DNA of 64,000 bases from Bacteroidota bacterium. GTDB lineage: Bacteria; Bacteroidota; Bacteroidia; Bacteroidales; Prolixibacteraceae. The notes beneath the pieces are model-generated. The model ran no database searches and was not told the DNA's origin. It saw nothing but the letters and a program-made list of their open reading frames with translations. Positions within the stretch are counted from its first letter, which is position 1. Every line of letters starts with the position of its first letter. The position numbers and the translations under genes are program-made. Shown one piece after another: positions 4,922 to 64,000 of this stretch. The stretch lies in NCBI GenBank assembly GCA_029265715.1, contig JAJUGZ010000003.1, forward strand, positions 10,322 to 74,321, given 5' to 3'.

Positions 4922-6443
4922 AATCGCTAAATTGTTGGTTGTCAAAGTGGTGGTTGACAGGCATTGTTCCGCCAGAAAAGTCACTATCTTGGTTCATCTT
5001 CGAACTAAATTTGTTGCCCAGCATTCCGCCGCCAATTTCGTGCGGGATAGCATTGTCGAGGTCGGCAAATTTGGCCATGTGTTTTTTGAACGACAACTGC
5101 ACATCGCCAACGGCTCCGTTACGGTGTTTGGCAATGATAATTTCGGCCACCCCGATCAACGAATTACCGGCATCATCTTCGGTAATTCCATAATATTCCG
5201 GACGGTGAATGAAACAAACGATATCGGCGTCTTGTTCGATAGCTCCGGATTCCCGAAGGTCGGATAGTTGCGGGCGCTTTCCTTCGCGCGATTCGACCGA
5301 ACGGTTCAGCTGGGAAAGCGCCAGGATCGGGATGTCTAACTCTTTGGCAATGGCCTTGAGCGAACGGGAGATGGTGCTTACTTCCTGTTCGCGGCTTCCG
5401 CGGTTGTCGCCTCCGGCCGTCATCAACTGAAGGTAGTCGACAATAACGGCTGAAATATTGTGCTGCATTTTCAACCGACGGCATTTGGCCCGGAATTCAA
5501 ACACCGAAAGGGCGGGCGTGTCGTCGATAAAGAGGGGTGCTTCTTCCAGTACGCCGATCTTGCGTTGCAGGTGTTCCCATTCCCAGTCAACCAGCCGTCC
5601 GTTCTTGATTTTTTCTGACCCCAGTTCCGTTTCGGAGGCAATCAGACGGTTAACAAGCTGGAGCGACGACATTTCAAGCGAGAATACGGCAACCGGTTTT
5701 TTATGGTCGACTGCCATATTGCGGGCCATCGACAAAACGAATGCCGTTTTACCCATCGACGGGCGGGCTGCAATGATCACAAGGTCGGTTTTCTGCCATC
5801 CGGAGGTAACACGGTCGAGTGCAGTAAACCCGCTTGGAACGCCACTCAATCCGTCTTCGCGCTTCGAAGCCTGCTCAATCAAATCGGATGCTTCTTTTAG
5901 CAATGGTTTAATCGGTACGGTTTCTTTTTTGATATTTCCCTCGGCTACTTTAAACATCGATGTTTCAGCAAAATCAATCAGGTCGTCAACATCCATTGTG
6001 TCGTCGTAGGCCTTGGTCTGAATTTCGGTTGAAACACGGATCAGTTCGCGCTGCATGAACTTTTGAGCAATGATCCGGGCATGGAACTCGATGTGGGCTG
6101 CCGAGGCCACTCGCGACGTAAGCTGGGTAATGTATAGTGGCCCGCCGACTTCGTCGAGTATGTTCCGGTTTTTTAATTCCTGGGTCACCATTAGCAGGTC
6201 GACCGGTTTTTCGTGGGTCGATAAATACTTGATGACTTCAAATATTTTCTGGTGTTCTTCTTTGTAGAAACTACGGGTGTCGATGATGTCGGCTACTGCG
6301 ATGTAGGCGTCGCGTTCAAGCATTAGCGCGCCCAGAACGGCTTCTTCAACTTCAATGGCCTGTGGTGGCAGCTTGCCATATTGCGCATTGAGTTGCTCGA
6401 TGGGCGACATTTTACTCGGATTTTGTTTCTTTTCTCCGGCCAT
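4887..6443 (-). CDS. dnaB: replicative DNA helicase
   Basis: PPQAIEVEEAVLG, AARPSMGKT Walker A, IVDYLQLM, SQLNRSVE, SDLRESGAIEQDAD. Confidence 0.98.
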   Translation of the reverse strand: MAGEKKQNPSKMSPIEQLNAQYGKLPPQAIEVEEAVLGALMLERDAYIAVADIIDTRSFYKEEHQKIFEVIKYLSTHEKPVDLLMVTQELKNRNILDEVGGPLYITQLTSRVASAAHIEFHARIIAQKFMQRELIRVSTEIQTKAYDDTMDVDDLIDFAETSMFKVAEGNIKKETVPIKPLLKEASDLIEQASKREDGLSGVPSGFTALDRVTSGWQKTDLVIIAARPSMGKTAFVLSMARNMAVDHKKPVAVFSLEMSSLQLVNRLIASETELGSEKIKNGRLVDWEWEHLQRKIGVLEEAPLFIDDTPALSVFEFRAKCRRLKMQHNISAVIVDYLQLMTAGGDNRGSREQEVSTISRSLKAIAKELDIPILALSQLNRSVESREGKRPQLSDLRESGAIEQDADIVCFIHRPEYYGITEDDAGNSLIGVAEIIIAKHRNGAVGDVQLSFKKHMAKFADLDNAIPHEIGGGMLGNKFSSKMNQDSDFSGGTMPVNHHFDNQQFSDYGKPGNDNIPF

Positions 6444-6507
6444 ATCAGGATTTTAAAAGCTTTCAGGATTTGTAATGCCCCTTCTCCGGAAAAGAGGAGA
6501 AAGGTCT

Positions 6508-6515
6508 CAAAGGTA
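6508..6515 (-). promoter_or_regulatory. -7 promoter element of dnaB
   Basis: TACCTTTG on the minus strand. Confidence 0.6.
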
Positions 6516-6716
6516 TAAAAAAAGAGACCGACGGGCTTCCTTTGGATATTTAAGTTATCGACAAAATTTAGATCTGCCGGAACAACGTATCGGTCATTTT
6601 GCGATTCCGCGTATGGTTTGATGCTTTGTCAGCCGATATATCGCAGTGCCGCATCTTTGTTCTGCTCGACCGGTTCTACAGCACGTTTGGCGTTTCCAAA
6701 TAAACGACCGTGTTTT

Positions 6717-6781
6717 CAAACCCAACGGGTTTGTATGTAGAATGCCAATCGCGGGCAATACGTGCGACCCCGCCTGGGTCG
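6717..6781. repeat. REP-like double hairpin
   Basis: CAAACCC-AAC-GGGTTTG and CGACCC-CGCCT-GGGTCG in tandem within a 450-bp intergenic region. Confidence 0.5.
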
Positions 6782-6844
6782 AATTATCCCAGATCCCTAT
6801 CGCGTAATTTGGGTTTAAGACAGTTTTTGAGTCTTTCGGGCAAC

Positions 6845-6871
6845 AAAAAAAGGGGGCCATTGAGCCCCCTT
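6845..6871 (-). terminator. intrinsic terminator of the ddl operon
   Basis: AAGGGGGC / GCCCCCTT stem with T7 tract on the minus strand. Confidence 0.8.
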
Positions 6872-6894
6872 CGATGTATTGTGTGACAGAAGTC

Positions 6895-7881
6895 TTACTT
6901 CAGTTTATCTTCGATAATCAGGCTTATAATGTCTGACAGGTTGGAGCCCATGGCCGCTATTTGTTGTGGTACAAAGCTGGTTGCTGTCATGCCTGGCGTT
7001 GTGTTTGCCTCCAGGAAGTAAAATTCGCCGTCGCGCAAAATGTAGTCGATCCGGACGATACCCTGGCAGTCGCATAAGGTATAAATGCGGGATGAGAGTT
7101 CCTGGCATTTTTTAGTCAATTCTGGAGAAAGGCGGGCCGGGGTAATTTCTTCGGTCATGCCCTGAGTGTATTTGGCTTCGAAGTCGAAAAATTCATTTTT
7201 CGGAAGCACTTCGGTGATGGGGAAAATAATCTCGCGGTCGGAAAGTTTCACTAATCCGCAGGTAAATTCTTTGCCGTCGATAAATTGTTCGGCCAGCACA
7301 TCATGGCTTTCCTGGAGCGCTTTTTTTATGGCTTCGTCTAATTGGTCGGCTGTTTTTACTTTGGTTACCCCAAAGCTCGATCCGCTGGTGTTGGGCTTTA
7401 CAAAAATCGGAAGTCCCAGTTCGTTGATAATAGATCGGGCGTCGACCAGATCGCCTTTCAGTATGCGAATGGATTTGGCCATTTTTATCCCGAAGTTCCG
7501 CAGGTAGTTCGAACAGAAATATTTATTGAACGTCAGTGCGCTTGACTGGACGCCGCAGGTGGAATACGGAAGCCCGATCAGGTCGAAATAGCCTTGCAGG
7601 CGGCCGTCTTCGCCCGGGGTTCCGTGAATAATGATATAGGCGAAATCGAACGTGATTTTTTCACCATTCAGGCTGAACGAGAAATCGCTTTTGTCAATGG
7701 ATGTCAATTTTTCGTCGCCGGCATACACGTCCCATTCCAATCCGCGAACCTGCACCTTCCATGCATTAAATTTCTCGCGGTCGATCGAGGCAAATACGTT
7801 TTTGCTGCTTTCTACCGAAACCACATATTCTGATGAATCGCCGCCAAAGACAACGGCAATATTTTTCTTCTTGCACGACAT
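6895..7881 (-). CDS. ddl: D-alanine--D-alanine ligase
   Basis: VFGGDSSEYVVS, IHGTPGEDG, KPNTSGSSFG, EANTTPGMT. Confidence 0.96.
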   Translation of the reverse strand: MSCKKKNIAVVFGGDSSEYVVSVESSKNVFASIDREKFNAWKVQVRGLEWDVYAGDEKLTSIDKSDFSFSLNGEKITFDFAYIIIHGTPGEDGRLQGYFDLIGLPYSTCGVQSSALTFNKYFCSNYLRNFGIKMAKSIRILKGDLVDARSIINELGLPIFVKPNTSGSSFGVTKVKTADQLDEAIKKALQESHDVLAEQFIDGKEFTCGLVKLSDREIIFPITEVLPKNEFFDFEAKYTQGMTEEITPARLSPELTKKCQELSSRIYTLCDCQGIVRIDYILRDGEFYFLEANTTPGMTATSFVPQQIAAMGSNLSDIISLIIEDKLK

Positions 7882-7915
7882 AATTTTTTAGATAATTTTC
7901 AGGATTAATGCTCCG

Positions 7916-7923
7916 CAAAGGTA
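7916..7923 (-). promoter_or_regulatory. -7 promoter element of ddl
   Basis: TACCTTTG on the minus strand. Confidence 0.55.
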
Positions 7924-7973
7924 TGTTTTCGGCTTATATCTGCCGTCGAAATCATGCATAAATTCCGGATAAA

Positions 7974-9131
7974 TTATTGTTCGAGTGACGACCGGTTAGC
8001 CAGGTAACCTCTCCATTTTTCAAGAGCTGCTTTCATGTCCTCCGGAAGTTCTGATTCAAATACCATCTGCTCTCCGGTTGTAGGGTGTTCAAAACCAAGC
8101 ATCTGTGCATGCAGTGCCTGTCGGGGAAGTATCTCAAAACAATTGGCTACAAACTGTTTGTATTTACTGAAGGTAGTTCCGCGCAAAATCTGGTCGCCTC
8201 CGTATACATCATCGTTAAACAGGGGGTGCCCGATGTATTTCATGTGTACGCGGATCTGGTGGGTGCGGCCGGTTTCGAGGTGGCATTCAACCAGATTAAC
8301 ATAGCCAAGACGTTCGATCACCTTATAATGAGTTACGGCGTGTTTTCCCGACCCGCCATCGGGGAAAACAGTGAAGACCTGTCGGTTCTTGGGGCTTCTT
8401 CCAATATGGCCGATAATGGTCCCTTCGTCGTTATCCAGATCTCCCCAGACTAAAGCGACATAGCGGCGCTTGGTTGTTTTCTCAAAAAATTGAAGTGCCA
8501 GTTTGTTCTTTGCCAGCTCGGTTTTGGCAACAACCAGTAACCCCGAGGTATTTTTATCGATGCGGTGTACCAGTCCGGGACGGGGATCGTTGCTGTTAAA
8601 CAACGGCAGATCTTTGAAGTGGTAGGCCAGCGCATTGACCAGCGTTCCGGTATAGTTTCCATGGCCCGGGTGTACAACCAACCCAGCCGGTTTGTTAATG
8701 ACAATCAGCTGGTCGTCTTCGTAAACAATGTTCAACGGGATGTTTTCGGCAATGATTTTTAGTTCGCGCCGCGGATAATCCATTACTACCACCACAACAT
8801 CGCCTGGCTTTACTTTATAGTTCGATTTTACCGGCTGGCCGTTTACCAGAATATTGCCCGCTTCGGCTGCTGCCTGGACACGGCTGCGGGATGCATTGTC
8901 GAGCCGGTTTGCCAGGAACTTATCGACACGCAGCGGCTTTTGTCCCGGATCGGCTACCACTTTGTGGTGTTCGTACAACCCATTTTCGTCGCTGTCTTCC
9001 GATTCTTCGTCATCCAGTTCTTCGTCTGCGTCCGGGTCATAATTGCGATTGTGAGGGATGTTGTGATTTGTTTGTTCATCCCTCTTATTTTGCTCCTGAT
9101 TTTCCGGAGATATGTGAGCTGTCTCGGTCAT
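7974..9131 (-). CDS. rluD: RluA-family 23S rRNA pseudouridine synthase with S4 domain
   Basis: RVDKFL S4 domain, INKPAGLVVHP, HRIDKNTSGLL, GRTHQIRVH; acidic N-terminal extension. Confidence 0.93.
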   Translation of the reverse strand: MTETAHISPENQEQNKRDEQTNHNIPHNRNYDPDADEELDDEESEDSDENGLYEHHKVVADPGQKPLRVDKFLANRLDNASRSRVQAAAEAGNILVNGQPVKSNYKVKPGDVVVVVMDYPRRELKIIAENIPLNIVYEDDQLIVINKPAGLVVHPGHGNYTGTLVNALAYHFKDLPLFNSNDPRPGLVHRIDKNTSGLLVVAKTELAKNKLALQFFEKTTKRRYVALVWGDLDNDEGTIIGHIGRSPKNRQVFTVFPDGGSGKHAVTHYKVIERLGYVNLVECHLETGRTHQIRVHMKYIGHPLFNDDVYGGDQILRGTTFSKYKQFVANCFEILPRQALHAQMLGFEHPTTGEQMVFESELPEDMKAALEKWRGYLANRSSLEQ

Positions 9132-59940: not shown

Positions 59941-60682
59941 AAAGATACTGATCATATTAGGCTGGATTTTGTTCGTCGCCTTTGTTGGCGGTTCGATAAC
60001 CTACTGCTGGCTCGAGATGAAAGACGTGAAGTGCCAGGCGGTATCGGTTCATATTGATCCGTCGTCGCCAAGGTTTATTGATGAAGCCGATCTGGCCCAG
60101 GTGATTGAGAAAGAAAATAACGGACTGATCGGTAAACGGATGGGATCTCTGAACCTGTATAAGCTGGAGAATAATTTAAAAAAGCTTACAACAATTAAAG
60201 ATGTTGAGGTTTTCAAGCGCATTAACAGTAAATCGTTGCGGTTTGCCGGGAGACTGGTGGTTAATGTTAGCGAGCGGACCCCAATCATGCGGGTTAAAAC
60301 CGATTCAGACGATTATTATGTCGATGCCGAAGGTGTTAAAATCCCGGTTTCAACCAAATATGCAGCCAATGTAATGGTGGTGAACGGGGCGGTGACCGAC
60401 GAGCTGATAAAAGAAAAACTGATCCCGCTGGTATTGTATATCGATAAAACCGAATTCTGGAAAGCTCAGGTTGAGCAAATATATGTAAAGGGAAACGGAG
60501 AACTGATTATGGTCCCTCAGGTTGGCGATCATATCATCGAATTTGGCTCGGCCGACGATTACAAGCGTAAGTTTCGGAATTTAAAAGAAGTGTATTTAAA
60601 AGGCTTCAACCATTCGGGTTGGGACCAATATAAAATTGTGAGTGTAAAGTATTACAATCAGGTTGTTTGTACAAAAAGATAA
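59933..60682 (+). CDS. ftsQ: cell division protein FtsQ/DivIB
   Basis: Single TM, POTRA-like domain, ERTPIMRV; position murC-ftsQ-ftsA. Confidence 0.88.
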   Translation: MFRKILIILGWILFVAFVGGSITYCWLEMKDVKCQAVSVHIDPSSPRFIDEADLAQVIEKENNGLIGKRMGSLNLYKLENNLKKLTTIKDVEVFKRINSKSLRFAGRLVVNVSERTPIMRVKTDSDDYYVDAEGVKIPVSTKYAANVMVVNGAVTDELIKEKLIPLVLYIDKTEFWKAQVEQIYVKGNGELIMVPQVGDHIIEFGSADDYKRKFRNLKEVYLKGFNHSGWDQYKIVSVKYYNQVVCTKR

Positions 60683-60686
60683 ATGT

Positions 60687-61988
60687 ATGGACAGGAGCGA
60701 ACAAATTTTTGCAGCCGTTGATATCGGTACAACAAAAGTAATAGCAATTGCCGGTAAACGGAATGATGAAGGGAAAATAGAAATTATCGGATTTGGTCAC
60801 AGCAAGTCGCAGGGTGTTAAACGGGGAATCGTTTTTAACATCGACGAGACACATGCCGCCATCGAGGAGGCAGTCAAGAAGGCAGAAGAATCGTTTGGTG
60901 GCATCATCGACGAGGTATATGTCAACATTGCCGGACAACACCTGAAAACACTCACTGCGCGCGGCCAGAAATACATCGGGCGCGACAACGAGTTTACCGA
61001 AGAGCATGTGGCTGAGCTTGAAGGGCAGGCCCGTCAAATTCCACTCGATCCGGAAATGTCGATTTACCATGTCAATCCGCAAATGTTCATTATCGATAAC
61101 GAGTCGGGCATCCAGAACCCGGTCGGAACGGCAGGCGAAAAACTTGAAGCTGTATATAAAGTTCATGTTGCTCCGGATTTGTATCAACGGAATATTCAGA
61201 AAAGCCTTGATAAAGCCGGGATCAAAATGCAGCGTGCCGTTCTCGACCCGATCGCCTCATCCGAAGTTGTTTTGACCGAAGATGAGAAAGAGGCTGGCGT
61301 GGTGCTGATTGATATCGGAGGTGGAACAACCAAAATGTCGATTTTCCGCGATGGCGTTTTGTGTTACACGGCGGTCATTCCGTTTGGTGGTAATGTAATC
61401 ACTCACGACATCAAGGAAGGCTGCTCCATCTTGTTACGACAGGCCGAGTCGCTTAAAGTACAGTTCGGGCAGGCGATGGGCGATTTTGCCCCGGCCGAGA
61501 AGGTGGTTACTATTCCGGGGCTCTCCGGATGGGAACCCAAGGAAATTTCGTTTAAAAACCTGGCGTTTGTTATTCAGGCCAGGATGGATGAGATTATTGA
61601 AGCCTGGTATTTTCATCTGGAGAAATCAGGCTACCTCGATAAGGTTGGCGCCGGAATTGTGTTGACCGGCGGAACGGCCTTGCTGCCCAATTTGAGGCAG
61701 TTGATCAAATACCGTACCGGTTTGGATGTGCGTCACGGGAAGCCGATTATGCACTTCTTTAAAGCCTGGAAAGAACTTGAAGACCCGCGTTTTTCAACCG
61801 CGCTGGGTTTATTGCTGATCGCGGCGAATGATGCCGATGAGGAAATAAAATCGAAACTGGCTAATCGCAGAAACCGGGGGAAGAAACCAAAAAACTCTCA
61901 GCCAGGTTTTTTCAGTTCCATCAAGAATCAGGTAGCGAAACAGGTCACACTTTTCTTCGAAGAAGATCAGGATACGGAAATGAGTTAG
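60687..61988 (+). CDS. ftsA: cell division protein FtsA
   Basis: DIGTTK, IDIGGGTT, PFGGNVIT, LTGG; C-terminal amphipathic helix; start ATG 60687. Confidence 0.96.
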   Translation: MDRSEQIFAAVDIGTTKVIAIAGKRNDEGKIEIIGFGHSKSQGVKRGIVFNIDETHAAIEEAVKKAEESFGGIIDEVYVNIAGQHLKTLTARGQKYIGRDNEFTEEHVAELEGQARQIPLDPEMSIYHVNPQMFIIDNESGIQNPVGTAGEKLEAVYKVHVAPDLYQRNIQKSLDKAGIKMQRAVLDPIASSEVVLTEDEKEAGVVLIDIGGGTTKMSIFRDGVLCYTAVIPFGGNVITHDIKEGCSILLRQAESLKVQFGQAMGDFAPAEKVVTIPGLSGWEPKEISFKNLAFVIQARMDEIIEAWYFHLEKSGYLDKVGAGIVLTGGTALLPNLRQLIKYRTGLDVRHGKPIMHFFKAWKELEDPRFSTALGLLLIAANDADEEIKSKLANRRNRGKKPKNSQPGFFSSIKNQVAKQVTLFFEEDQDTEMS

Positions 61989-62014: not shown

Positions 62015-63292
62015 ATGAACGACGAAATTTTCAACTTTGGACTCGAACAGGCCGGCTCTTCCATCATTAAAGTAATTGGCGTGGGAGGCGGTGGATGTAA
62101 TGCAGTCAATCACATGTACGAGGAAGGCATCGCCGGTGTTGATTTTATTCTTTGCAACACCGATGCTCAAGCTCTTCGAAACAGCCCGGTGCCGGTTAAA
62201 ATTCAACTGGGGGTTACCCTTACCGGAGGCCGAGGCGCCGGGAACAGGCCGGAGCATGGGGAACTGGCTGCCATCGAAAACCTCGAAGATATCCGCGCGT
62301 TGCTGGATGGCACTACCAAGATGGTTTTCATCACGGCCGGAATGGGCGGAGGTACCGGTACTGGCGCGGCGCCCGTGATTTCGAAGCTGGCAAAGGAACT
62401 CGATATCCTGACAATTGCCGTCGTTACAGTGCCCGCGCCAGCTGAAGGTCGGCGCAGGTTCCATCAGGCGCTCGACGGAGTTACCAAGTTGAAAGAGCAT
62501 GTCGATAGCTTGTTGGTCATCAGCAACGAAAAATTACACAAAATATACGGCAACCTGCCGGCATCACAGGCTTTTAAAAAAGCCGACGATATTTTGACTA
62601 CAGCCGTAAAAGGGGTTGCCGAGATTATCACGGTGCATGGTAATATTAATATCGACTTTGCCGATGTGAGCACGGTAATGTCGGGAAGCGAAGTGTTCCT
62701 GATGGGAACCGGCTATGCATCCGGTGAAGGGCGGGCCATGAAGGCTGTGAAAGAAGCTTTGCGCTCACCGTTGCTCGATAGCAACGATATTTATGGCACT
62801 AAAGATATCCTGCTCAATATTATTTCCGGCGAAGAAGAAATCACCATGGGCGAAATCGGAGAAATTATCGATTACCTTCAGGATAAAGCCGGACAGGATG
62901 CTAATATTATCTGGGGAAATGGAGTAGATAAAAAACTGGGTCCAAACATCAGTGTTACTATTATTGCCACCGGTTTCGAAACCAATCCCAATGAACTATT
63001 TCAGGAAAACAGAAAAGAAGTTATCGTGCTTGATCCCGACTTTACCGACATCGGGCCTGAAATAAACCTGGAAGAACCCGAAAAAGCAGAATCACCCTAT
63101 AGTCTGTTCCCCGAAGAGGAAACAACTTCTTTTGAGGTAAAAACGGATAAACGTGCTAAACGAAAGAAGGTAAAAGAACCTGTTTCGGGAAAGCCATCAG
63201 ATGGCGGAAATGTGGATAGCTGGTTTGCACGGCAGTTTTCACGTTTTTTTGAGGACACCGACGAACCCATGTCGGATGGTAAAGATCAATGA
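62015..63292 (+). CDS. ftsZ: FtsZ paralog 1 with a non-canonical, FtsA-like C-terminus
   Basis: GVGGGGCNA, GAG, GMGGGTGTG, EGRRR, NIDFAD; tail ends WFARQFSRFFEDTDEPMSDGKDQ. Confidence 0.93.
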   Translation: MNDEIFNFGLEQAGSSIIKVIGVGGGGCNAVNHMYEEGIAGVDFILCNTDAQALRNSPVPVKIQLGVTLTGGRGAGNRPEHGELAAIENLEDIRALLDGTTKMVFITAGMGGGTGTGAAPVISKLAKELDILTIAVVTVPAPAEGRRRFHQALDGVTKLKEHVDSLLVISNEKLHKIYGNLPASQAFKKADDILTTAVKGVAEIITVHGNINIDFADVSTVMSGSEVFLMGTGYASGEGRAMKAVKEALRSPLLDSNDIYGTKDILLNIISGEEEITMGEIGEIIDYLQDKAGQDANIIWGNGVDKKLGPNISVTIIATGFETNPNELFQENRKEVIVLDPDFTDIGPEINLEEPEKAESPYSLFPEEETTSFEVKTDKRAKRKKVKEPVSGKPSDGGNVDSWFARQFSRFFEDTDEPMSDGKDQ

Positions 63293-63317
63293 AGTAAAAC
63301 CCTGAAAAAGTAAGATC

Positions 63318-64000
63318 ATGACAAATGAAATAATCAATTTCGAGTTACCGGAAAAATCCGGATCGATCATTAAAGTTATTGGAGTTGGCGGCGGTGGAGG
63401 GAACGCCGTAAACCACATGTTTCACCAAGGTATCCGCGATGTCGATTTTATGGTATGCAACACCGATTCGCAGGCGCTGGCAAACAGCCCGGTACCCTAT
63501 AAAGTGCAGCTGGGTTCGTCGCTAACCGAGGGCCGCGGGGCTGGCAATAAGCCTGAAGTTGGTCGTGAAGCAGCCATTGAAAACATCGAAGATGTGAAGA
63601 AAATCCTGAAAGATAATACCAAGATGGTATTCATTACGGCCGGAATGGGCGGAGGGACCGGAACCGGAGGCGCCCCGGTTATCGCACAGGCAGCCCGCGA
63701 ACTGGGCATCTTAACGGTTGGGATTGTAACAATTCCGTTCCGCAATGAAGGACGCCGTCGTGTAAAGCAGGCCATCGAAGGTATTGCGGCCATGGAGGAA
63801 CATGTTGACTCGCTACTGGTGATCAATAACGAACGGATACGCGAAATGTACGGGGATTTTAAGATTTCGGATGCATTTGCCAAAGCAGATAATATCCTCA
63901 CAACGGCGGCCAAAGGAATTGCTGAAATTATAACGGTCCCGGGGTATATCAATGTTGACTTTGCCGATGTGGAGACGGTAATGCGCGATAGTGGCGTGGC
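63318..64000 (+). CDS. ftsZ: FtsZ paralog 2 (canonical-looking), runs off the window end; not in the ORF track
   Basis: Manual translation MTNEIINFELPEKSGSIIKVIGVGGGGGNAVNHM...GMGGGTGTGG...IPFRNEGRRR...GYINVDFADV. Confidence 0.96.
   Translation, partial: MTNEIINFELPEKSGSIIKVIGVGGGGGNAVNHMFHQGIRDVDFMVCNTDSQALANSPVPYKVQLGSSLTEGRGAGNKPEVGREAAIENIEDVKKILKDNTKMVFITAGMGGGTGTGGAPVIAQAARELGILTVGIVTIPFRNEGRRRVKQAIEGIAAMEEHVDSLLVINNERIREMYGDFKISDAFAKADNILTTAAKGIAEIITVPGYINVDFADVETVMRDSGV

Follow-up and report, generated by a model that had tools for sequence, protein, structure and literature searches.

The window analysed here is a stretch of 64,000 nucleotides (nt) from contig JAJUGZ010000003.1 of a Prolixibacteraceae bacterium (Bacteroidota; Bacteroidales; assembly GCA_029265715.1). 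It ends in a same-strand (+) series of ftsA and two tandem ftsZ genes, called here Z1 (ftsZ copy 1) and Z2 (ftsZ copy 2), which are only 25 nt apart. The Z1-Z2 pair is a family trait of the Prolixibacteraceae. Judging from sequence comparison, Z1 is very probably a conserved and functional FtsZ paralog in which the C-terminal docking peptides were replaced by a tail resembling that of FtsA. With modest confidence, we also lean towards the full package, in which Z1 would anchor itself directly in the membrane.

Z1 occupies positions 62015..63292 (+) and is complete with 425 residues; this paralog retains the whole GTPase core, but its C-terminus has been exchanged. Z2 starts at 63318 (+) and continues past the window end at 64000, so that the window holds the first 227 of its 472 codons, those of a canonical Bacteroidota FtsZ. 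Both copies match the Pfam Tubulin/FtsZ family and the NCBIfam ftsZ equivalog TIGR00065 (cut-off 295.2 bits). Z1 scores 369 bits and full-length Z2 379.6 bits, and the 291 bits of the window's partial Z2 are low only because the gene is cut. The two proteins share 65% amino-acid identity over 227 residues without gaps, and their DNA 64%, with 40% at third codon positions; these values rule out both an echo of the assembly and a duplication of recent date. An earlier note, made from the letters of this DNA, had described two ftsZ genes of the same orientation 25 nt apart with many differences, and had drawn the same conclusion. The open reading frames (ORFs) and the Pfam and NCBIfam matches bear out the description, and the conclusion is strengthened by the recurrence of the gene order on three independent contigs and in at least 82 related genomes. 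The motifs quoted there, VPAPAEG and HGNINID in copy 1 and IPFRNEG and PGYINVD in copy 2, are all present.

The remainder of Z2 was recovered by searching a large protein database with a query composed of the window's 227 residues and the C-terminal part of the closest ortholog. A protein of 472 residues (P0214), encoded on a contig of 75,736 bases, is identical to the window's Z2 ORF over its first 227 residues and ends in ...DIPAYRRKNL...NNSYLHDNVD. The Z2 protein is also encoded on three other independently assembled contigs (L212-L214; one JGI and two NCBI metagenome assemblies). All three carry the order ftsW-murG-murC-ftsQ-ftsA-Z1 (425 residues)-Z2 (472 residues)-yqeY, followed by convergent genes. 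Thus, copy 2, read beyond position 64000, is not truncated and has a full C-terminus, and the pair does not stem from misassembly. The public sequencing runs that contain most of this DNA are anaerobic-digester metagenomes.

A first scan found ftsA-Z1-Z2-yqeY in Maribellus luteus, Prolixibacter bellariivorans, a Tangfeifania metagenome-assembled genome (MAG) and a MAG labelled Marinifilaceae. The distribution of Z1 was surveyed in species-representative genomes with degenerate DNA encoding the T7 motif peculiar to Z1, HGN[IV]NID[FY][AT]DV. Exact searches with the Z1 protein and with a 58-mer from the window end matched no contig, the window's own genome not being among the representatives. At least 119 of these genomes carry the pattern, nearly all of them Prolixibacteraceae, including members of Draconibacterium, Mariniphaga, Sunxiuqinia, Maribellus, Tangfeifania, Prolixibacter, Gaoshiqia and Mangrovibacterium. 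Wherever the fetched block extends far enough, a canonical Z2 directly follows Z1. This amounts to at least 82 distinct Z1-Z2 pairs, and the comparison of synteny across relatives that the earlier note proposed shows the tandem arrangement conserved in the family. In a large protein database the Z1 orthologs fall into more than 120 clusters at about 70% identity, every named one being a 'cell division protein FtsZ', a shared name that masks the paralogy in annotation.

Which of the two copies is the canonical one is apparent from their C-termini. Nearly all of about 75 single-copy Bacteroidota FtsZs from the fetched loci carry a PAYxRR-type peptide and, 30-40 residues further on, a terminal NSFLHDNVD. 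PAYxRR corresponds to the peptide with which FtsZ of model bacteria docks onto FtsA, ZipA and other partners. Both motifs are present in Z2 and its orthologs and absent from Z1 and its orthologs, so that Z2 is the canonical FtsZ and Z1 the derived paralog. NNSFLHDNVD at the extreme C-terminus is the second strongly conserved motif of almost all Bacteroidota FtsZs (loci L002-L080; P0214); we know of no described function or partner for it.

The C-terminal part of Z1 is composed, in order, of a disordered linker, a Lys/Arg-rich stretch, a predicted WFxRQFxxFF helix and an acidic end. In the window, the linker (63005..63214, +; residues 331-400) ends in the basic stretch KRAKRKKVK, and AlphaFold2 gives it a predicted local distance difference test score (pLDDT) below 50 from residue 332 on. 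The tail VDSWFARQFSRFFEDTDEPMSDGKDQ (63215..63289, +; residues 401-425), with its predicted amphipathic helix and acidic end, stands where PAYxRR and NSFLHDNVD would be. The PAYxRR...LHDNVD arrangement is missing from every Z1 picked by the T7 motif, and nearly all of these proteins end in (N/S)WFxxxFxxxF(D/E). The family consensus is (D/S)(N/S)WFx(R/K)(Q/N)Fxx(F/L)F(E/D)DxD, with W403, F404, F408 and F412 invariant in the alignment (A3). AlphaFold2 leaves residues 332-400 disordered and places a helix, at low confidence, over residues 402-415. The hydrophobic moment of the window tail (FARQFSRFFED) is 0.77 (p 0.001 against shuffles), and that of the E. coli FtsA membrane-targeting sequence is 0.84. 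The complete replacement of the docking peptides by an FtsA-like tail is the largest difference of Z1, one that the earlier note missed. It points to a change in membrane tethering, instead of or besides a tuning of GTPase activity or filament curvature.

The tail of FtsA itself, read from the sequence at 61896..61985 (+), is made up of basic residues followed by the amphipathic segment GFFSSIKNQVAKQVTLFF and closes with the acidic residues EEDQDTEMS. FtsA tails across Bacteroidota follow the same basic, amphipathic aromatic and acidic design, for example GNWFDQIFSKGKEWFNEDPE, LFEKIQRNFASIFDERDTEM and GSWFSNLLNKTTEFFEDDAIK. The acidic end past the amphipathic segment is conserved in Bacteroidota FtsA, and in Bacteroidales it often reads ...D(T/A)EM (window; L002-L080; L201); the E. 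coli FtsA membrane-targeting sequence, by contrast, stops at the helix.

The resemblance between the two tails was measured with a hidden Markov model of FtsA tails, trained solely on genomes without Z1. All 87 of 87 Z1 tails obtained a score, weak for each tail taken singly (median 5.4 bits, best 12.8), whereas the Z2 tails stayed at background level (median -0.2, best 4.2). The same loci supplied about 3,000 decoy C-termini; true decoys among them reached at most about 7.5 bits, and the few sequences above this value were unlabelled Z1 tails. Similarly, hhalign aligned the Z1-tail profile to the FtsA-tail profile with a P value of 4e-5 and a probability of 70% (1.5e-4 in a re-run), over a short segment. 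In the controls, the P value was 0.38 for Z2 tails against FtsA tails and 4.5e-3 for the best of 30 column-shuffled profiles. Z1 tails also match the FtsA tail encoded in the same genome better than FtsA tails from elsewhere (24.9 versus 22.3), a value that none of 5000 permutations equalled. Prolixibacter, for instance, has the ends SDNDMEM/SDEDMEM, and strain 6E has DDDQNM/DDDGNM. A DNA-level search for recent gene conversion between the 3′ ends of ftsA and Z1 found none, and since their synonymous sites differ, the co-variation does not come from recent conversion.

We then examined the GTPase core, using the residue numbering of S. aureus FtsZ mapped through an alignment to the PDB. A phmmer search against PDB FtsZ chains matched Z1 over residues 16-327 (E 5e-84), and AlphaFold2, run with 43 aligned sequences, gave a confident model of the core. 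The guanosine triphosphate (GTP)-binding signature GGGTG(T/S)G and the nucleotide-contact residues (T1-T6 and H7) are 94-100% conserved in 86 Z1 and 53 Z2. In the 86 Z1 this holds for the T1-T4 glycines, N25, D46, T109, T133, E139, R143, N166, F183 and D187. The T7 synergy-loop residues N208, D210 and D213, which serve GTP hydrolysis in the polymer, are 100% conserved in both paralogs. Our best reading, from conservation, is that Z1 would be an active FtsZ that keeps all that is needed for GTP binding and hydrolysis in the polymer.

The only deviation of Z1 among the nucleotide contacts is at F136 (and F138) in the T5 loop, VPAPAEG at 62429..62449 (+), where both Phe of the canonical PFxFEG are gone and the ribose-contacting Glu-Gly is retained. 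Phe136 is lost in 86 of 86 Z1 and is Phe in 100% of the compared Z2 and single-copy FtsZs; the substitution of a conserved Phe reported for copy 1 is therefore a real and fixed feature of the paralog. The second Phe is A, K or S in Z1, Asn in all 53 Prolixibacteraceae Z2 and Phe in 90% of single-copy Bacteroidota FtsZs. Accordingly, the Z2 loop IPFRNEG (63732-63752, +), taken in the earlier note as canonical, keeps the first Phe but has itself replaced the second by Asn, the Bacteroidota consensus being PFxFEG. The T5 loop lies at the nucleotide-side longitudinal interface of FtsZ filaments, and its alteration in both paralogs of the family hints at a co-adaptation of this interface between Z1 and Z2. 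The T7 loop of Z1, HGNINID at 62636..62656 (+), differs as described from PGYINVD by the Z1-specific changes of Tyr to Asn and Val to Ile, but the difference is mild, since the catalytic N, D and D are unchanged. In total, ten positions are fixed in Z1 and differ from both Z2 and single-copy FtsZ: G130A, I131V, F136S/A, R170H, A194V, V209I, A224F, N251D, A257T and D273G.

Both copies are under strong purifying selection. The ratio of nonsynonymous to synonymous substitution rates (dN/dS) over the globular domain, from 31 genome pairs with unsaturated dS, was 0.024 for Z1 and 0.027 for Z2. The constraint on Z1 thus equals that on the essential copy, and the relaxed selection that could have been suspected in copy 1 was not seen.

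Maximum-likelihood trees were built on the globular domain. The Prolixibacteraceae Z1 form one clade (support 100/100, stem length 0.42-0.46) and the Z2 another (support 99/95, stem 0.13-0.17). Both are nested in a Bacteroidales clade of good support, and the branching pattern inside one mirrors that inside the other, so that the duplication is older than the radiation of the family. An FtsZ phylogeny, one of the checks proposed earlier, thus separates the two copies and, together with the Bacteroidota C-terminus of Z2, supports an old tandem duplication with copy 2 as the canonical member. A horizontal acquisition of Z1 was considered and rejected, given the similar GC (guanine plus cytosine) contents (0.48 versus 0.50), the nesting within Bacteroidales FtsZ and the mirrored trees.

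Z1 always lies between ftsA and Z2, at 25-40 nt from the latter. In the 25-nt spacer of the window (63293..63317, +) no terminator-like hairpin was found, and the only strong one of the region stands after yqeY on the identical contig L214. The claim of an ancient, selected and co-transcribed pair is upheld by the trees, the dN/dS and this terminator-free spacer. For the expression of copy 1, short contigs with an identity of 99% or more occur in four RNA-labelled public runs: two of the runs have contigs matching Z1, one has contigs matching Z2, and one, a declared metatranscriptome, has contigs matching ftsA. Those matching Z1 speak for its expression, weakly, with labels that are partly guessed.

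A simple model of the pair would be as follows. Z1 would polymerise, most likely together with Z2; as the two genes are co-transcribed and the proteins 65% identical in the polymerising domain, co-assembly is the simplest expectation. The Z1 tail would insert straight into the membrane, and the Z ring would thus have two types of tether, with Z2 held through FtsA and Z1 by itself. As to the origin, one tandem duplication could have taken in the ftsA 3′ end, the DNA between the two genes, the whole ftsZ core and part of the linker. This single step would yield an intact ftsA, a fusion of an FtsZ core with an FtsA tail (Z1) and a complete ftsZ (Z2), products that match the observed gene order exactly.

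As a tentative and more speculative extension, Z1 might be the natural counterpart of FtsZ-mts: a self-tethering subunit created by a single fusion, co-polymerising with Z2 in a heteropolymer ring with two tethering modes. The tails of FtsA and Z1 might then have co-evolved ever since, serving the same target. FtsZ-mts, reportedly made by Osawa, Anderson and Erickson in 2008, is said to carry an amphipathic membrane-targeting helix in place of the C-terminal peptide and to form rings on liposomes without FtsA. Z1 shares with it the architecture of an FtsZ core, a linker and a C-terminal amphipathic helix (predicted in Z1) in place of the FtsA-binding peptide. FtsZ-mts is a laboratory construct with the MinD helix, whereas Z1 is natural, conserved in a family, placed beside a normal FtsZ and provided with an extra acidic end.

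Several points weigh against a self-anchoring Z1 derived from such a fusion. The pLDDT of the tail helix is about 40, and Z1 tails of the Maribellus/Draconibacterium type carry an insert with Gly and have a moment of only 0.46 when treated as a straight helix. An acidic end past the helix is unexpected for a simple anchor to anionic lipids, and its co-variation with FtsA fits a shared protein partner equally well as a membrane anchor. The similarity of Z1 and FtsA tails is weak per sequence (5-13 bits). Z1 tails are also phylogenetically dependent, so that the class-level tests represent few independent events, and the likeness of the two tails may reflect convergence instead of homology. No trace of the proposed ftsA-ftsZ fusion remains at the DNA level. 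On the phylogenetic side, approximately unbiased tests reject neither a sister relationship of the family's Z1 and Z2 (p 0.12) nor a single clade of the family's Z1 and the Z1 of the Marinifilaceae-labelled MAG (p 0.14). Placed against the other Bacteroidales families in the tree, the duplication may date from the root of Prolixibacteraceae or be older. Finally, the RNA label is guessed for three of the four runs, and DNA carry-over is possible.

One alternative is that the Z1 tail is a protein-docking peptide. Z1 and FtsA would then share an aromatic helix and an acidic ...D.EM motif that bind one Bacteroidota division protein, and Z1 would bring this partner to the ring, bypassing FtsA. The conservation of the acidic end in Z1 and FtsA and its co-variation within genomes agree with this, as does the low hydrophobic moment of some Z1 tails; an acidic end is unneeded for binding to anionic lipids and would oppose it. 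We nevertheless hold it to be rather unlikely, as the position, length, aromatic face and basic stretch of the tail match the well-established C-terminal membrane-targeting sequence of FtsA (Pichoff and Lutkenhaus 2005, as cited in PMC12583498), and no candidate partner was identified. As in FtsA, the Z1 tail has a C-terminal amphipathic helix (predicted) after basic residues, and it aligns to the Bacteroidota version of the sequence; it differs in being about 4-6 residues shorter in the helix and in being carried by an FtsZ, not by an actin-like protein.

It is improbable that Z1 acts chiefly by tuning polymer dynamics, the idea with which the earlier note had explained the pair. The changes in T5, T7 and the cleft would then affect how mixed Z1/Z2 filaments turn over GTP, treadmill or curve, with the tail secondary. 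The ten fixed core substitutions are in its favour, among them F136S/A in T5, V209I in T7, A224F on strand S7 in the inter-domain cleft, and the interface-proximal R170H and D273G. So is the T5 change F138N, found in the Z2 of this family only, with its hint of co-adaptation at the longitudinal interface. However, the catalytic and nucleotide-contact residues are unchanged, and the conserved tail swap would be left unexplained. Tuning and anchoring are not exclusive.

We judge it very unlikely that Z1 forms a separate, non-division membrane cytoskeleton, unmixed with Z2, which would, for example, control shape or length in these long, often filamentous rods. The long Z1 stem compared with that of Z2 could fit such a role, as could the changed interface residues, which could lessen mixing, and the shape functions of other FtsZ/tubulin paralogs such as the archaeal CetZ (PMC9871819). 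Against it stand the invariable position of Z1 in the dcw operon, close to Z2 and without an intervening terminator, and its score as an ftsZ equivalog. Finally, an assembly artefact or decaying duplicate is next to impossible: a broken copy was seen in only two MAG loci, as apparent assembly errors, and the echo and pseudogene readings were rejected on the three independent contigs, the 82 distinct genomes, the dN/dS of 0.024 and the intact ORFs.

The proposed self-anchoring Z1 beside a canonical Z2 can be compared with other FtsZ systems. In chloroplasts of plants and green algae, only FtsZ2 keeps the docking peptide and the FtsZ1 C-terminus is reported in direct membrane contact (PMC12583498, citing An 2024 and Liu 2022). 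The likeness lies in a paralog pair with a docking peptide in one member only, and the chloroplast pair co-assembles. The chloroplast proteins, however, work in a plastid of cyanobacterial descent, are encoded by unlinked nuclear genes and have unrelated tails, whereas Z1 and Z2 are adjacent genes of a bacterial dcw operon, with a Z1 tail that resembles that of FtsA, a protein that plastids lack. In Odinarchaeota, one of FtsZ1 and FtsZ2 binds the membrane via an amphipathic helix, and an adaptor that holds the C-terminal tail of the other paralog serves as its tether (PMC12583498). This is a similar division of tethering labour between paralogs, which in Prolixibacteraceae is suggested by the sequences. 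The Odinarchaeota pair differs in being archaeal and much older, in its N-terminal helix, in its adaptor (SepF, not FtsA) and in having its membrane binding experimentally shown.

Among bacteria, Mycoplasma FtsZs are said to carry putative N- or C-terminal membrane-targeting sequences and to bind liposomes directly (Dutta 2025, as cited in PMC12583498), and like Z1, for which this is only predicted, they would be natural bacterial FtsZs with a terminal membrane-targeting sequence. As far as that citation describes them, they are single-copy proteins of wall-less bacteria, with neither a paralog pair nor a likeness to the FtsA tail. Old bacterial ftsZ duplications are described mainly from Alphaproteobacteria, in which the extra copy is truncated (bioRxiv 10.1101/2025.09.29.679267). 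The paralogs of Hyphomicrobiales and Agrobacterium resemble the present case as an old, family-level and selection-maintained duplication whose extra copy lacks the normal C-terminus. They have no linker or tail and are usually unlinked, whereas Z1 is full-length, carries a new conserved tail and lies in tandem with Z2. A broad FtsZ/tubulin phylogeny mentions no duplication in Bacteroidota (PMC9871819). A literature search for FtsZ with Prolixibacteraceae or its genera found no relevant paper, most papers in subscription journals being outside its coverage. What sets the present case apart is that a bacterial family has its FtsZs as a tandem pair, the additional one with an FtsA-like tail.

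A central question of bacterial division is by what means, and by how many tethers, the Z ring is attached to the membrane; so far it has been studied mostly with one FtsZ and its adaptors or with the artificial FtsZ-mts. The cultivable members of the family (Draconibacterium, Prolixibacter, Maribellus, Mariniphaga, Sunxiuqinia and Gaoshiqia) offer a natural system for asking whether a self-anchoring FtsZ can work beside a canonical one. The pair also bears on the division of labour in heteropolymers and on the emergence of new cytoskeletal subunits through gene fusion.

The pair of the Marinifilaceae-labelled MAG (L004, positions 5920-8598 of JBGRQA010000019.1) is of a different kind. Its Z1 has a canonical PFRFEG T5 loop together with an FtsA-like tail (IDNWFKEKFTQIFDNEDTSM), and its Z2 keeps PAFKRK without a terminal NSFLHDNVD. 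A search for relatives with this Z1 found no further tandem pairs (L201 is single-copy), and a search with its linker and tail returned only two close relatives in the protein database, so that the type looks rare. This pair may be an independent event. If the proposed fusion is right and this pair arose separately, the same fusion would have occurred more than once in Bacteroidia.

Other variations were observed within the family. At L163 (Z1) and L114 (Z2), both MAG loci, one copy is apparently frameshifted or truncated; these broken copies are probably assembly errors, lineage-specific loss being the other option. Divergent Z1 tails without the Trp or the FF-acidic end occur at L174 (GGMFDGIKKIFGKLVKAPEDQNFK) and at L186 and L195 (...RQFTKLLGDAKD...), and in the L174 tail the alternation of hydrophobic and basic residues persists. 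The Z1 linker contains an island, GPEINLE (63056-63076; residues 348-354). As (F)EINLE(D/E), it reaches a conservation of 90% or more within the subclade of the window (I350 and N351 in alignment A3) and is not conserved in the Z1 of Maribellus or Prolixibacter. This island may be a docking motif specific to the subclade.

As for the neighbouring genes, yqeY encodes a YqeY/GatB-domain protein of 149 residues, located on L214 at 7421-7870, 2 nt past the Z2 stop, and occupies the same position in all four relatives found first. The ftsA gene of the window (60687..61988, +) encodes 433 residues from an ATG and matches Pfam FtsA, SHS2_FTSA and MreB_Mbl, and the gene callers on the identical contigs agree on this length. 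In the mechanical ORF list it starts at a TTG at 60663 (441 residues), eight codons before the gene callers' ATG, window positions 60663-60686 being the extra part.

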